From an uncultured Lentisphaerota bacterium (GTDB lineage Bacteria > Verrucomicrobiota > Lentisphaeria > Oligosphaerales > CAJXKU01), in contig CAJXKU010000001.1 of assembly GCA_913055945.1 (NCBI GenBank), positions 1 to 42,760 of the forward strand: a stretch of 42,760 nt of DNA. Reading direction: 5' to 3'. The notes below the pieces were generated by a model. That model was not told where the DNA came from, searched no databases, and saw only the letters and a program-made list of their open reading frames with translations. The position numbers and the translations under genes are program-made. Shown piece by piece: positions 1-18,683 of this stretch; the stretch's first letter is position 1; the number at the start of each line of letters is the position of its first letter.

Positions 1-173
1 CGGCCGCGCCGTCGACGGCGGACCCTCGATCGCTTCTTTATAAGTGGCCGCCACTCTTTCAACGAACGACCCCGTCAGAGCGCCTTCCGGTGATTAAACC
101 GAGTTAAATCGGGCGTAATTCGGCTGAACGGCTTGCGTCATTAAAGTGGGTCGGGCGCCGAGGGGAAGTCGCT

Positions 174-476
174 ATGAACGCGATCCGAACGACGCTGCTC
201 GTGGCGCTGGCCACGGTGGTACTGATCGGGACCGGCGCGGCCGCCGGCGCCGTCGCGGCGACGCCCGGGCCGGGCGACGCGCCCGGCGACGCGGGGCCGC
301 CGAGCGACCTCCCGGACCAAGTGCCGGACTTCGTCGGCGGGGTCCTCGATAGCGTGAACGAGTTCCTCGGCGGCGGCGTCGACGACCTCGGTGAGACCGT
401 GAGCGAGGTCGCCGGGAACGGCGCCGGCGATGGCGAGGATGACGGGTCCGACGCGAGCGACGGGGAGGAGGCGTAA
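174..476 (+). CDS. Small secreted, extremely acidic protein (haloarchaeal-type composition)
   Basis: ATG-to-TAA ORF of 100 aa. It has a hydrophobic N-terminal signal (MNAIRTTLLVALATVVLIGTGAAAGAVAA) followed by a D/E/G-rich mature part. GC3 is almost saturated, and local GC is about 72% (43/60 at 181-240, 44/60 at 421-480). No family recognised. Confidence 0.45.
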   Translation: MNAIRTTLLVALATVVLIGTGAAAGAVAATPGPGDAPGDAGPPSDLPDQVPDFVGGVLDSVNEFLGGGVDDLGETVSEVAGNGAGDGEDDGSDASDGEEA

Positions 477-477
477 C

Positions 478-1158
478 GTGACGGACCGGACGCCGGACTC
501 GGACGCGTCCGCCCTCGACGCTCTCGACCGCCGGACGTACCTGCAGGCGATCGGTACGGCTGTTGTGGGAAGCGCCGTTATTCTGCTGGGAAGCCTCCAC
601 GTCTACCTCGTGCATCGTATTCACGAGCTGAACCTGAACAAGATCAACGAACTGATGACCAGGGATGAACTTACCCGTTTGTTCAATCTGCGCGCAGGTC
701 AGGAAGCTCTGCAGAGGGAGATGGAACGTGCAGAGAGGTATCAGGAAGCGTTCGCCGTGCTATCCATAGACTTGGATAATTTTAAGACCGTGAACGATAC
801 CCTCGGTCATAGCGCAGGCGATGACCTTCTTGTTAAGGTTGCAGACACGTTGAAGGCGTCCAGCCGTAGAACGGACATTCCCGTCAGGGTTGGCGGAGAT
901 GAATTTTTGATGATTCTTCCGAACACCGGTATCGGCGGGGCTGTTGTACTCGCTTCGCGGCTCATTGAGCACATCCGGAAGCTATCTGTGCAGGAGGGGG
1001 AAGAGGTTGAAAATCAGATTCCGATCAGCGCCAGCATAGGAACTGCAGCGTTCCCTGATCATGGCACAGACGGGGAGAAACTGTTACAGAAAGTGGACAA
1101 AGCACTTTACAAGGCAAAGAACAACGGGGGAAGCCAATACAGCTTACCGCAGGAATAA
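478..1158 (+). CDS. GGDEF-domain diguanylate cyclase; the N-terminal ~40 codons have different (high-GC, Tat-signal-like) character, so this is a probable chimeric ORF
   Basis: The C-terminal 170 aa form a canonical GGDEF domain (LSIDLDNFKTVNDTLGHSAGDDLL ... RVGGDEFLMIL ... KALYKAKNNG). It has an RxxD I-site (RRTD) exactly 5 residues upstream of GGDEF. The N-terminus (VTDRTPDSDASALDALDRRTYLQAIGTAVVGSA) resembles a haloarchaeal Tat signal. A GTG at 478 follows the TAA of the preceding ORF, and an in-frame ATG at 430 is the alternative start. GC drops from about 72% to about 50% across roughly 550-615. Confidence 0.7.
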   Translation: MTDRTPDSDASALDALDRRTYLQAIGTAVVGSAVILLGSLHVYLVHRIHELNLNKINELMTRDELTRLFNLRAGQEALQREMERAERYQEAFAVLSIDLDNFKTVNDTLGHSAGDDLLVKVADTLKASSRRTDIPVRVGGDEFLMILPNTGIGGAVVLASRLIEHIRKLSVQEGEEVENQIPISASIGTAAFPDHGTDGEKLLQKVDKALYKAKNNGGSQYSLPQE

Positions 1159-4795: not shown

Positions 4796-7516
4796 TTGCG
4801 GTTTCAGTGTCCACATTGCGGCGGTATAAACGAGGTAGATGACTCGTCAGCAGGTAAGGCGGTGAACTGCACAAGCTGCAGTACGGCGGCCGCCGTACCC
4901 CCGCATCATCTTGCTCCCGGAGCCGTGGTTAACGATTTTGTAATTAAAGAGAAAATCGGTAGCGGCGGCAGCAACACGACTGTATATCAGGCCCACCAGA
5001 TTTCCCTTGATCGACCCGTAGCGTTAAAAATCGTCCATGAGGCCGAAGAGCAGGACGAGAGCGTACGTAACGAACTGTTGCGCGAAGGACGTGCTGCGGC
5101 GCGTTTGACCCACTCCTCGATTGTACAGGCATATGCGGCCGGAGAAGAAGGCGGCGTATACTATTTTGCCATGGAATACGTAGAAGGGACCACCCTTCAC
5201 GAGATTCTTACGCAGACCGGACGCATGGTCGTGGACCAGGCTTTGACCATCATTGCCCAGATTGCTGAAGCGCTGGCGCACGCCTGGGAAAAAGAGCAGC
5301 TTGTGCACAATGACATTAAACCCAGCAACATTATCCTGTCAAAAAGGGGGGAGAAAAAACTTGCCGACCTTGGGCTGGCTCACCGGCCTGCCGAATCAGC
5401 TGAACAGGATGAGACGGTCTCGGGTACTCCCCAGTATATTGCCCCTGAACACCTTCAGGGAAAAGGCATCGACTGCCGCGCGGATATTTACAGCCTTGGC
5501 GGCACGCTATACTGCGCGCTCACCGGCACGCCGCCGTACGTGGGAAAAAATGCTTTAGAAACAGCGAAAAAACATTTGACTACACGTCTGACCCCTCCGG
5601 AGAAAATTGTGTCAGAAATCTCGGCCAATGTTTCCCACCTTGTCCAATGCATGCTCACCAAACGTCCGGAACATCGTTACAGCTCCTACCGGGAACTGCT
5701 GCAGGATATGAAACGGGTTCAGCGCGGAAAAGCCCCCACGAAGGAACTGCCCGAAGATGCTCAGAAACCGTTGTTATTCGAAGATGGCGAAGAGCAAACC
5801 GGCGAAGGGAAAGAGGGCAGTGAGAAGAAAAAACGGGAAACTCGATCACAGAAAAAAGAAGACAGTGAACGGGGAACGGAAAGTAAGGGGAGTGCCGGAG
5901 GAAAGCGGCTGAAAACACATTCCGGACGTTCAAAGAAAACACTGTCGCATAAAGGTAAAAGTTCCCGGTCAGATTCCGGCAGTGAAGGTGATGCCCGGGC
6001 GGCCTCAACCAGAAGCGGCAGTGGTCGGTCAGGGCGAACGCGGCCGAACACTGCGCAGTCTAAGGCAGAAGGGGATCAGAACAACCAAACAGGAACTCAG
6101 GAGCAAAAAGCGTCTGCCGGAAAAAAGAAAGCTGCAGTGGGCGTACTTTGCCTGCTGGCCCTGCTTGTTGCAGGAGGCGTAAGCGTTGTTTTGATTTCCG
6201 GCGGTGAGTCTTCCTCCTCGGACGGAAAAAACGGGCAAAACCAGGCATCCCAGGGAGAATCGGAGAATTCAGCTGATTCCGGCGGGACTGGTGAAAATGA
6301 AAAACGAAAGAACACTCTCCTCGAGTTAAAAAAGATGGTGAAGTCTAATGCGGACGCTTCAGAAATTCTGCAAACAGCCGAGACCGCAATTGCTCAGGCC
6401 CAGGGCGAGACAGTCTTCATTACAAAAGTACGCAAAATTATAAGGAAAGTTCTTGAGAAAAAGGTTCGGCAGGAACGACAGGTCCACCATCAGAAACAAA
6501 TGCAGAACTGGGAAGAACGTGCACAGAAGCTGAGAAGGCAACACCTCAAAGAGACCGCTGAAGAAAGGCGTGCAGCAGTTGAACGTCTGCGCAATGCGGC
6601 CAAAGGTGTAAACGCACAAGAGTGGGCCGAATCGTACTGGGAACGGGCTACGCGGTTGCAGAAAAAAGCCAGGCAGGCTTTTGAAGAGGAAAATTTTGAG
6701 AAAGCCGGCGCGCGGTGGCAAAGCGCAAAAGAAGCTTTACAGGAAGCTATACAGGCCGGCCGAGAAAAGCAGGAAGAAAAACAAAACCTGAAACAGCGAT
6801 ATGACAAATTGCGGGAAAAGGCCCTAAACCTTTGTCGAAAGAACAAATACTTGAAGGCGAAGGAGCTCTTTATTCCTTTAAAAACGAGTGATTTTCCGGA
6901 ATGTCAAGCCTGGGCGGAGCAGAAGATGAAGACGATAGATGTTGCCAAGGAAGTTTTCTCCAGCGTGGCCGGCACAGATAACAAACTGAAAGGCAAAGAC
7001 TTCACTGGTAGAGACGACAATTGGAAAGTGGATTACATAGGTTCCTCGAAGATCGGACTTCGTCTCATCGAGACAAGTTACAAAAATGGAGAATGGAAGA
7101 AGGAAACAACGAGGAAGACAAAGCTTCCCTTGAAAGATGTCTCTGCTTCGGCAATGTTGGATCTTTACAAGATGTTGAAGCTGGGCAGCAAAGACAAAAA
7201 GCTTACATCAGAGTTGAAATATAAGTTTGGCGCTTATTTACTTGCCAGGGGAAAAAATAAAAGCGCTCTGGATATGGCGAAAAACTTTTTAGCGGCATAC
7301 GGAAAGCCGCCCTCGTCAAAAATGCTGAAGGAGTTGGAAAAGGTCCGGGTACTGGTCGTTGAACGGAGCTGGACGAAAAGACTTGACAGGCTGAAGCTGT
7401 GGGTCAATCAGGGTCGGATGGAAAAAGCGAAAAGGTTTGTTGAGTACCTAAAGCAGAAATACCCGGATAAATATGCTGAAAGTAAAGAAGAAATTCGCCG
7501 GATACTGCGAGAGTAA
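4796..7516 (+). CDS. Membrane-anchored Ser/Thr protein kinase with an N-terminal C4 zinc ribbon and a coiled-coil extracytoplasmic C-terminal region
   Basis: TTG start 8 nt after AGGAG. Zinc ribbon CPHC-x17-CTSC (aa 5-28). Hanks kinase motifs are intact: IGSGGSNTTVY, VALKIV, HNDIKPSN, DLG, GTPQYIAPE. A long K/S/G/E-rich disordered linker is followed by one TM helix (AAVGVLCLLALLVAGGVSVVLI, about 6131-6203) and then about 430 aa rich in heptad-like K/E/R/Q sequence. Confidence 0.85.
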   Translation: MRFQCPHCGGINEVDDSSAGKAVNCTSCSTAAAVPPHHLAPGAVVNDFVIKEKIGSGGSNTTVYQAHQISLDRPVALKIVHEAEEQDESVRNELLREGRAAARLTHSSIVQAYAAGEEGGVYYFAMEYVEGTTLHEILTQTGRMVVDQALTIIAQIAEALAHAWEKEQLVHNDIKPSNIILSKRGEKKLADLGLAHRPAESAEQDETVSGTPQYIAPEHLQGKGIDCRADIYSLGGTLYCALTGTPPYVGKNALETAKKHLTTRLTPPEKIVSEISANVSHLVQCMLTKRPEHRYSSYRELLQDMKRVQRGKAPTKELPEDAQKPLLFEDGEEQTGEGKEGSEKKKRETRSQKKEDSERGTESKGSAGGKRLKTHSGRSKKTLSHKGKSSRSDSGSEGDARAASTRSGSGRSGRTRPNTAQSKAEGDQNNQTGTQEQKASAGKKKAAVGVLCLLALLVAGGVSVVLISGGESSSSDGKNGQNQASQGESENSADSGGTGENEKRKNTLLELKKMVKSNADASEILQTAETAIAQAQGETVFITKVRKIIRKVLEKKVRQERQVHHQKQMQNWEERAQKLRRQHLKETAEERRAAVERLRNAAKGVNAQEWAESYWERATRLQKKARQAFEEENFEKAGARWQSAKEALQEAIQAGREKQEEKQNLKQRYDKLREKALNLCRKNKYLKAKELFIPLKTSDFPECQAWAEQKMKTIDVAKEVFSSVAGTDNKLKGKDFTGRDDNWKVDYIGSSKIGLRLIETSYKNGEWKKETTRKTKLPLKDVSASAMLDLYKMLKLGSKDKKLTSELKYKFGAYLLARGKNKSALDMAKNFLAAYGKPPSSKMLKELEKVRVLVVERSWTKRLDRLKLWVNQGRMEKAKRFVEYLKQKYPDKYAESKEEIRRILRE

Positions 7517-16669: not shown

Positions 16670-17047
16670 TCGCCTCCATAGTGTTGATGGGTATATTTTT
16701 CAAAGTCGGAACTATGAGCTGTTGTTCTGTAACTTCGCAAACCCTCTGTTTGCCCGGCAACCTGTTACGGGTCATTCACAGGATAAATATGAGGCTCGTT
16801 TGGGTCCGTAGCTGGAGCTGTACAACGTTTTCCGGTGCCGGCCGGCAGATTTGCTCCTGCTGAGGCTCGAGCTGACGGAGATCATAACAACGATCATTCA
16901 TCCTGACCCCGTTCAAAACGGTATGGTACTTACTATAGTACAAATGTTTCTGTTGGGGTTTCACCATAAGCTACGCCTGAGGTTCTATTGATGCAACAAA
17001 AAATGCCGCACCCTGAGCCTGAACGATTGAACCGGCAGCGGGGAGGA

Positions 17048-17689
17048 ATGTTTATAACGTTTGAAGGGCCCGACGCCGCTGGGAAATCGACCCAGGCCCG
17101 AATGCTGGCAGACGTACTGCACGAAGCAGGCTACACGGTCCACTTGACCCGCGAGCCCGGCGGTACGCGCTTAGGGGAAGCGTTGCGGGACCTGGTGAAG
17201 GGGTTGAAGACTGAAGACCCACTGGTTCCTGAAGCCGAACTTTTACTCTTCGGAGCCAGTCGGGCTCAACTCGTAAGACGCGTGATCGAGCCTCGTTTGA
17301 AGAAAGGCGAAATCGTTATCTGTGATCGCTTTTCGGACTCTACGACGGTTTATCAGGGCATTGTGCAGAACATCGATTTGTCGTTCATAAGACAGATGCA
17401 CGATTTCACGAATCAAAGCACGGAGCCGGATCTGACAATCCTTCTGGACGTCACCGTAGCTACGAGCTTTGAACGTTGTGAGGGGCGGAATATTGAGCAG
17501 AAAACGCAAGCCGACCGATTCGAAGCGGAATCCAGCCGATTTCACGAGAACGTACGTCAGGGGTTTCTTCAGTTGGCACGGCAGGAGCCCGGGCGGATAA
17601 ACATTGTCGATGGGGATGCCTCGCCGGAATCCATTCATGCGCATATTAAGGAGCTTGTGTCCAAACATGGCCTTGAATCTATACAATGA
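17048..17689 (+). CDS. tmk: dTMP (thymidylate) kinase
   Basis: MFITFEGPDAAGKSTQ P-loop, TREPGGT and DRF..S..AYQG-like (DRFSDSTTVYQG). The track ORF begins at an upstream TTG/ATG (16988/16991), so the start is uncertain. Confidence 0.85.
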   Translation: MFITFEGPDAAGKSTQARMLADVLHEAGYTVHLTREPGGTRLGEALRDLVKGLKTEDPLVPEAELLLFGASRAQLVRRVIEPRLKKGEIVICDRFSDSTTVYQGIVQNIDLSFIRQMHDFTNQSTEPDLTILLDVTVATSFERCEGRNIEQKTQADRFEAESSRFHENVRQGFLQLARQEPGRINIVDGDASPESIHAHIKELVSKHGLESIQ

Positions 17690-18683
17690 GCGTTTCCCGA
17701 AACTTGTAAAATTTCTGCAGAATGCCAAAGCGAAACGACGCGTTGCGCATGCTTACTTGATCACAGGAGACCAGGAGGAGCTTCTACGGGATTTTGCCCG
17801 GTCCTGGATTCAAGTGTGCGCGTGTGAGTCACCCGGCGAGCGCTATGATGCGTGCGGGAATTGTGAAAACTGTCGGAAACTGCAGAATCACACGTATCCC
17901 GAATTATTTGTCTTATGGCCGGAGTCCAAATTGCGCACAATCGGTGTGGATGATTCCCGCTGGCTCGAACAGCAGTTGGGTATGACCGGAACCGGCGCGC
18001 GCCTCAAAGTGGGCCTGATTACAGAGGCTGATTGCATGACCGAGCAGGCCCAGAATGCTTTCCTGAAAACCCTGGAAGAACCCCAGCCCGGCAATATGCT
18101 GGTGTTGACGACTACGCGACAGCGACGGTTGCTGCCTACCATTCGATCAAGGTGTCAGACAATCTCCATCCGCGAAAATTCGCGGGACTACGGAGATCTT
18201 GTCGATGCGGGTCTTTTTGATATCCTCGCGCAGATCGAGCCGGAATCCGGCGCTCTGCGTGCGTTGACCGCGGCCTCACAACTTGTTGAGCTGTTCGGGC
18301 AGTTGCGGCAACAGGCCGAGGAGGCACACAGCGGCGACGAAGATGAGCGTTGGGAGCATGTCGCTGAAGGTGATAAGAATCTGCAGAAAAAAATCGAAGA
18401 TCAACGCAATGCACAGATAGAAGCTGAATACAGACGGCTCCGAGAGCGCTTTCTGGACGCAATCCAGACGTGGTATCTGCAGCAGGCGTTATTAAGCAGA
18501 GGCGTAAACAGAGAGGCCATACCCCATCAGGAAATGCTGCCCTATATCTTCCCGTGTTCTCCAGAGGCGGCTGATCGAAATGTTCGACTCGTGGATGATC
18601 TGATCTATTACCTGTCCGGTAATACTGACGAACGTCTGGCGATCGAAGCGTTCTGTCTCTCTGTGTGTGAGAAAAGCGCCTAG
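17667..18683 (+). CDS. holB: DNA polymerase III delta-prime subunit
   Basis: HAYLITG, a zinc module CGNCENCRKL, QNAFLKTLEEP and the sensor SRCQ. The ATG at 17667 (MALNLYNERF) overlaps the tmk end by 23 nt, the classical tmk-holB arrangement. Confidence 0.8.
   Translation: MALNLYNERFPKLVKFLQNAKAKRRVAHAYLITGDQEELLRDFARSWIQVCACESPGERYDACGNCENCRKLQNHTYPELFVLWPESKLRTIGVDDSRWLEQQLGMTGTGARLKVGLITEADCMTEQAQNAFLKTLEEPQPGNMLVLTTTRQRRLLPTIRSRCQTISIRENSRDYGDLVDAGLFDILAQIEPESGALRALTAASQLVELFGQLRQQAEEAHSGDEDERWEHVAEGDKNLQKKIEDQRNAQIEAEYRRLRERFLDAIQTWYLQQALLSRGVNREAIPHQEMLPYIFPCSPEAADRNVRLVDDLIYYLSGNTDERLAIEAFCLSVCEKSA

Follow-up and report, generated by a model that had tools for sequence, protein, structure and literature searches.

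Haloarchaea and hypersaline bacteria (e.g. Salinibacter ruber) exchange genes, and the accepted transfers between them are, to our knowledge, whole, functional genes embedded in host DNA. [quoted passage not shown] The locus described here resembles the interspecies chimeric contigs of the CAMI, GUNC, metaMIC and DeepMM literature in that two organisms of a community meet at an abrupt compositional and taxonomic break, the foreign piece lies less than 1 kb from the contig end, and the marker-gene estimate of contamination misses the join; it differs from them in bringing together two domains of life, and in that the join lies in frame inside two genes and yields a plausible fusion protein. With the exchange between haloarchaea and hypersaline bacteria it shares habitat and partners, so that a real transfer is plausible in principle; unlike the accepted transfers, it is an un-ameliorated, sub-kilobase fragment at a contig end that cuts both genes.

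The stretch of DNA analysed (the window) corresponds to contig C1 in its full length of 42,760 bp, with position 1 at the physical end of the contig; all C1 features given below are on the + strand. Its source genome comprises 376 contigs (3.39 Mb, with completeness estimated at 87% and contamination at 1.58%), a fragmentation and completeness indicating a metagenome-assembled or similarly fragmentary genome (the MAG, below). The original prediction started from a sharp fall in GC content near the contig start, and its five spot counts (43, 44, 37, 33 and 29 out of 60 bases) were exact on recount. The GC content is 0.70 for bases 1-549 vs 0.52-0.53 for the remaining contig, and GC3 is 0.93 for 174-473 and 0.96 for 478-549, vs 0.59 for 550-1155; the earliest third positions occupied by A or T are 555, 561 and 564, in line with the switch that had been placed at about 553. 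The bacterial part downstream (551-1158) has a MAG-like GC content of 0.52. Among 32,982 overlapping 300-bp segments covering the whole 3.39-Mb genome (mean GC 0.528, sd 0.0425), the segment at C1:201 ranks at the top, with a GC content of 0.763 (∼5.5 sd above the mean). The composition shift at the start of C1 is far beyond chance; the break is abrupt, with no gradient (GC3 goes directly from 0.96 to 0.59), and the Halorubrum-type segment has not been ameliorated at all. A scan of bases 1-1500 against Rfam gave only a chance-level match. Further into the contig, the gene at 1467-2819 encodes a response regulator of the sigma-54 activator type (read from its translation are a receiver domain, a GESGTGKE Walker A motif, a GAFTGA loop and a C-terminal HTH). 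The GAFTGA loop is a mark of bacterial enhancer-binding proteins, so this gene indicates that the body of contig C1 is bacterial.

Searched separately, bases 1-560 match a different group: bases 1-554 have their best match in Halorubrum and not in a bacterial lineage, as expected from the two origins that had been proposed. In blastn searches the alignments to H. rutilum, H. sodomense and H. saccharovorum have 86.5%, 84% and 81% nucleotide identity, respectively; they are collinear across non-coding DNA as well as two genes, and each of the three stops at base 554 (the H. rutilum match, L002:2828-3360, begins at window base 1). An exact 26-mer on the Halorubrum side retrieved a single contig from the JGI metagenome contigs, L030 (GC 0.68, Halorubrum-type), which aligns at 79.5% and ends at 560. 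At this identity L030 represents a Halorubrum-type population different from the donor of the C1 segment, and the donor itself is none of the Halorubrum species compared (at most 87% identity). The gene order at the Halorubrum reference loci is a class-II aminoacyl-tRNA synthetase, an intergenic region, a small acidic protein and a 241-aa DUF4382 protein; C1 differs from them in that, of this locus, it has no more than the intergenic region, the small gene and ∼24 initial codons of the DUF4382 gene.

The intergenic region occupies bases 1-173, which in the references (blastn to H. rutilum L002) lie downstream of the class-II aminoacyl-tRNA synthetase gene; the upstream ORF in L002 is assigned to the Pfam family tRNA-synt_2. 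It contains conserved A/T boxes, TTTATAAG at 37-44 and ATTAAAG at 140-146, the latter ∼30 nt before the ATG. The haloarchaeal TATA element has a usual position relative to the start, and because of this position the A/T boxes may be read as a promoter. Within the same region, the non-coding block at 86-146 (GATTAAACCGAGTTAAATCGGGCG.AAT.CGGCTGAACGGCTTG) is near-invariant between the window and four Halorubrum-type sequences, and its flanks diverge; this block has no match in Rfam, and it could be a conserved promoter/operator or a small RNA of Halorubrum.

The small gene (174-476) is complete, and its product has the properties that had been read from it, i.e. a hyper-acidic secreted protein: it has 100 aa with a signal-like hydrophobic N-terminus, 13 D, 6 E, no K and one R, and a pI of 4.05. 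It was assigned by its homology to Halorubrum, its pI and its GC3; no Pfam family matches it. When one genome of each prokaryotic species was scanned, the protein was found at three loci, all of them in Halorubrum (82-86% amino-acid identity), and the 5.8-billion-protein collection holds 61 homologs, of which all those with a genus-level name are from Halorubrum (one further named match is from an unclassified 'Methanobacteriota archaeon' MAG). Among named sequences the family thus appears to have been seen only in Halorubrum. When the 100-aa protein was used as a query against the protein collection, contig C1's own copy was not among the matches.

The second archaeal gene starts at 478 and is cut after ∼24 of its 241 codons (478-550; alignment and translations of L002, L003 and L004, with which L030 agrees). 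In the references its product is assigned to PF14321 (DUF4382), and the gene start overlaps the stop codon of the small-protein gene (TAACGTG). What C1 retains encodes the n-region and the twin-arginine motif, DRRTYLQA; the remainder of the gene is absent, including the lipobox LAGC. The references go on as ..RRTYLQATGAAALG..LAGC.., with a signal region of ..DRRTYLQATGAAALG.AGLAGC... The haloarchaeal Tat signal claimed for this gene is therefore incomplete: the RR motif is there, but the lipobox found in all references has been replaced by a bacterial transmembrane helix past the crossover.

A high-GC end does not by itself point to an archaeon, as the MAG has high-GC stretches of its own. GC upshifts of at least 0.10 are found at 15 out of 752 contig ends vs eight out of 2634 internal positions, i.e. 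∼6.6 times more commonly at ends; this enrichment was not used alone as evidence for chimerism because part of it is due to a native dispersed repeat. In blastn the repeat (e.g. C232:262-719, C43:39-395, C4:5469-6006 and C6:5704-6055) accounts for 62 HSPs spread over 41 contigs, of which 27 lie less than 500 bp from a contig end, and it is probably the cause of many of the assembly breaks in the MAG. Other native high-GC genes encode a sulfatase, a curlin-repeat protein and a protein with thrombospondin-like repeats. Four further high-GC ends, C173 (curlin repeats), C30 (a lambda-type phage portal), C105 (a methyltransferase) and C140 (FlgD_ig), showed no haloarchaeal affinity in Pfam or DNA searches and were left out of the count of haloarchaeal tails. 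On C30 a lambda-family phage portal gene lies in a 1.9-kb end with a GC content of 0.67 (C30:18491-20371), and on C173 the curlin-repeat protein gene (C173:455-1156) has a GC3 of 0.90; these two ends may be native or of prophage origin, or else tails contributed by other high-GC bacteria.

With such stretches in the MAG, the start of C1 might be regarded as one more native bacterial gene or copy of the repeat, its haloarchaeal resemblance being convergent. We consider the probability of this reading to be practically nil: it is refuted by the nucleotide match to Halorubrum (81-87% identity over 554 bp, non-coding DNA included) and by the genus names of the homologs of the 100-aa protein, which are exclusively Halorubrum, and the dispersed repeat has no copy on C1.

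On the other side of the junction, bases 551-1158 represent the 3′ ∼202 codons of a bacterial gene for a membrane-anchored diguanylate cyclase, identified by homology to the protein P0002 and by PF00990, and encode a second transmembrane helix (TM2), a linker and the GGDEF domain. As had been predicted, the frame from GTG 478 (or ATG 430) runs without a stop codon into the GGDEF domain, which matches PF00990 with an E-value of 4e-43 over profile positions 3-160 of 161. The GGDEF active-site motif is preceded by an RxxD inhibitory site five residues upstream (RRTD-IPVRV-GGDEF); both lie in the bacterial part of the ORF only. The statement that this family is essentially bacterial also held, since GGDEF domains were detected in only one out of 151 Halobacteria genomes (with 29 bits) vs eight out of 14 control genomes, all eight being bacteria. 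In 40 genomes of the order to which the MAG belongs, the GGDEF matches are at the level of paralogs only (33-41% identity).

Besides itself, the fused protein has its best match in the ENA metagenome protein P0002 (266 aa): residues 61-262 of P0002 align with residues 23-224 of the fused protein at 60% identity over 202 residues, a similarity that extends across TM2, the linker and the GGDEF domain. P0002 is unlike the C1 protein in having its own N-terminus of 60 residues, comprising a basic tail and the first, markedly hydrophobic helix (TM1), where C1 has Halorubrum sequence; hydropathy accordingly gives two transmembrane cores in P0002 and one in the C1 protein. Judged against this homolog, the GGDEF gene of C1 lacks its own ∼60 5′ codons. 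The end of contig C123 was considered as a candidate for the missing N-terminus and rejected, as the weak match is to an unrelated zinc-ribbon membrane protein. Counting against an artificial join, an un-joined copy of the bacterial GGDEF gene is absent from the other MAG contigs, from the JGI metagenome contigs (a scan with a wobble-degenerate pattern of the bacterial sequence adjoining the junction gave no matches) and from the protein collection.

The two similarities meet within a few bases. The Halorubrum nucleotide alignments end at 554, and the protein similarity to P0002 starts at codon 544 (Q-A-I-G-T-A-V-V-G in C1 and Q-S-I-A-T-A-L-V-G in P0002); agreement with Halorubrum up to 554 together with similarity to P0002 from 544 places the crossover within 544-554. 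Two bases here, T551 and T555, are unlike all four Halorubrum-type references. Both parents could share ∼7-11 nt at the crossover, encoding the start of a hydrophobic helix, and relative to their homologs both genes, DUF4382 and GGDEF, are truncated at it.

A junction of this kind could be expected from a genuine, very recent inter-domain transfer, in which a Halorubrum fragment was captured by illegitimate recombination at a microhomology and replaced the 5′ end of the GGDEF gene, giving a real fusion protein; the contig would then break off within the insert as reads from abundant co-resident Halorubrum tangle the assembly graph. Several features of the locus suit this reading, which we nevertheless hold to be very unlikely. 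The junction is in frame and falls at what may be a short microhomology, a GGAGG is found 9-13 nt before GTG 478, the remaining hydrophobic helix behind the RR motif resembles a signal or an anchor, and gene exchange between haloarchaea and hypersaline bacteria is known. But both genes are truncated and TM1 is lost, and from the inferred topology the single remaining helix would put either the GGDEF domain or the charged N-terminal tail outside the cell. The composition also argues against a transfer, as it is without any amelioration. Furthermore, the Halorubrum segment starts at contig base 1, so host DNA is not found on both sides of it, and no MAG contig continues the segment; against this last argument, a real insert that resembles abundant co-resident archaea could also break contigs and end up in a terminal position.

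The architecture of the fused protein is found in no homolog, which likewise speaks against a transfer. The fused N-terminus occurs in no other protein of 30-396 aa among the 5.8 billion proteins, the fused ORF is a singleton, and shorter fragments spanning the junction are absent from the same collection. The search for full-length homologs, which would bear on the single-origin alternative raised with the original prediction, thus found none with the fused N-terminus, the best other match being P0002, which does not have it. The ORF itself is present in the public protein collection as P0001 (242 aa, window 430-1158, 100% identity), a family of one member from one 42,760-bp contig; its assigned start, ATG 430, is inside the Halorubrum small-protein gene. 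As a gene model, P0001 is almost certainly an artefact.

Three more contigs of the MAG, C143, C171 and C39, end in haloarchaeal tails. The tail of C143 (C143:7181-8400 of a contig 8400 long; L015:782-2001, minus strand) has 72.7% nucleotide identity over 1222 bp to the haloarchaeal genome G171 and holds a DUF192 gene and a Tat-lipoprotein gene that is cut 12 codons before its natural stop. Without a change of frame, this lipoprotein gene passes into a bacterial oligosaccharyltransferase gene of the STT3/PglB family, at the first transmembrane helix of the latter, and the resulting ORF (at least 492 aa) is spurious. The 3′ end of C171 (∼6800-7204, L031) encodes an archaeal type IV pilin (PF07790) that is 50% identical to its counterpart in G171; matches to this pilin are found in 86 out of 151 Halobacteria genomes. 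At the 3′ end of C39 (∼16717-17867, L032) the last 376 bp share 88.6% nucleotide identity with the haloarchaeal genome G166, and synteny with G166 at the protein level reaches ∼1.15 kb inward; this tail holds the beginning of a DUF1102-like secreted protein, next to which lies a syntenic gene whose GC content is lower.

Each of the four tails has its match at a separate, unlinked reference locus, and these loci are spread over at least three reference genomes; no two of the tails pair as the two sides of one insertion. At the DNA level, the 2.8-kb and 3-kb flanks of the three Halorubrum loci have no counterpart elsewhere in the MAG. A filter for haloarchaeal-type ORFs (≥90 aa, GC3 ≥0.78, K ≤2%, D+E ≥14% and pI <4.8) applied over the whole MAG leaves two ORFs, one terminal on C1 and the other terminal on C39, and none inside contigs. 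That the other three haloarchaeal segments are likewise terminal, lie at other, unlinked reference loci, and include none that is internal or that pairs with another, is the remaining argument against a genuine transfer. To account for all four tails, a hypersaline bacterium would have taken up short pieces of several haloarchaeal genomes that have undergone no amelioration, two or more of them fused in frame to its own membrane-protein genes (the GGDEF cyclase and STT3) with archaeal secretion signals as new N-termini, and these fragments would be terminal only through assembly breaks caused by abundant archaeal reads. We regard this scenario as highly improbable. Explanations besides a chimeric contig end and a genuine capture are negligible.

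We are therefore highly confident that bases 1 to ∼550 of the window are a Halorubrum fragment artificially joined to the end of a bacterial contig and that the fusion protein is an artefact. This was also the first choice of the original prediction, which preferred a chimeric assembly to a genuine gene fusion, and it is supported by the Halorubrum matches, the bacterial nature of the GGDEF part, the lack of a full-length homolog and the three further tails. Observed are two origins, a defined crossover position, a truncation in each gene, a location at the contig end and the recurrence on three other contig ends; from these we infer that the join is artificial and how it would have arisen. 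The sample would have held both Halorubrum and the bacterium, and the contig would have been extended from the truncated bacterial GGDEF gene into Halorubrum over the ∼7-11-nt stretch that the two could share (CAGGCGA..CGG, which in both proteins encodes Q-A-x-G where a hydrophobic helix begins). The join may have been made in the assembler or via a chimeric read or fragment; the extension into Halorubrum would have lasted 554 bases and then ended. An overlap of ∼7-11 nt is shorter than the usual k-mers of assemblers, so that a plain de Bruijn mis-join would need either longer identity in the donor or a chimeric read.

Also counting against an artificial origin, two out of the four junctions (C1 and C143) are in frame, which for random joins has a chance of ∼1 in 9. 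On C1 the reading frames run together because there are few stop codons in the Halorubrum DNA and the shared stretch is in codon phase. In-frame joins more generally may be owed to the scarcity of stop codons in DNA of 70% GC and to phase-locked GCN/GGN/GTN/CTN runs in hydrophobic segments. As a result of the merged frames, gene callers list a 242-aa 'Tat-signal-GGDEF' product, one that very probably exists in no cell.

The tail of 554 bp is of the kind that survives correction, as the last kilobase of contigs is left unexamined by the published tools, and a single MAG with an estimated contamination of 1.58% has at least four cross-domain joins at its contig ends. Anomalies within ∼1-1.5 kb of a contig end should therefore receive a taxonomic check of each side before they are interpreted. 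Since P0001 is in a public collection, it can be misread as an archaeal GGDEF protein, as an inter-domain transfer or as a new domain architecture; both P0001 and the STT3 fusion of C143 should be flagged as chimeric gene models. The fusion on C1 is very probably not a real feature of any genome, and the fusion protein is very probably made by no cell.
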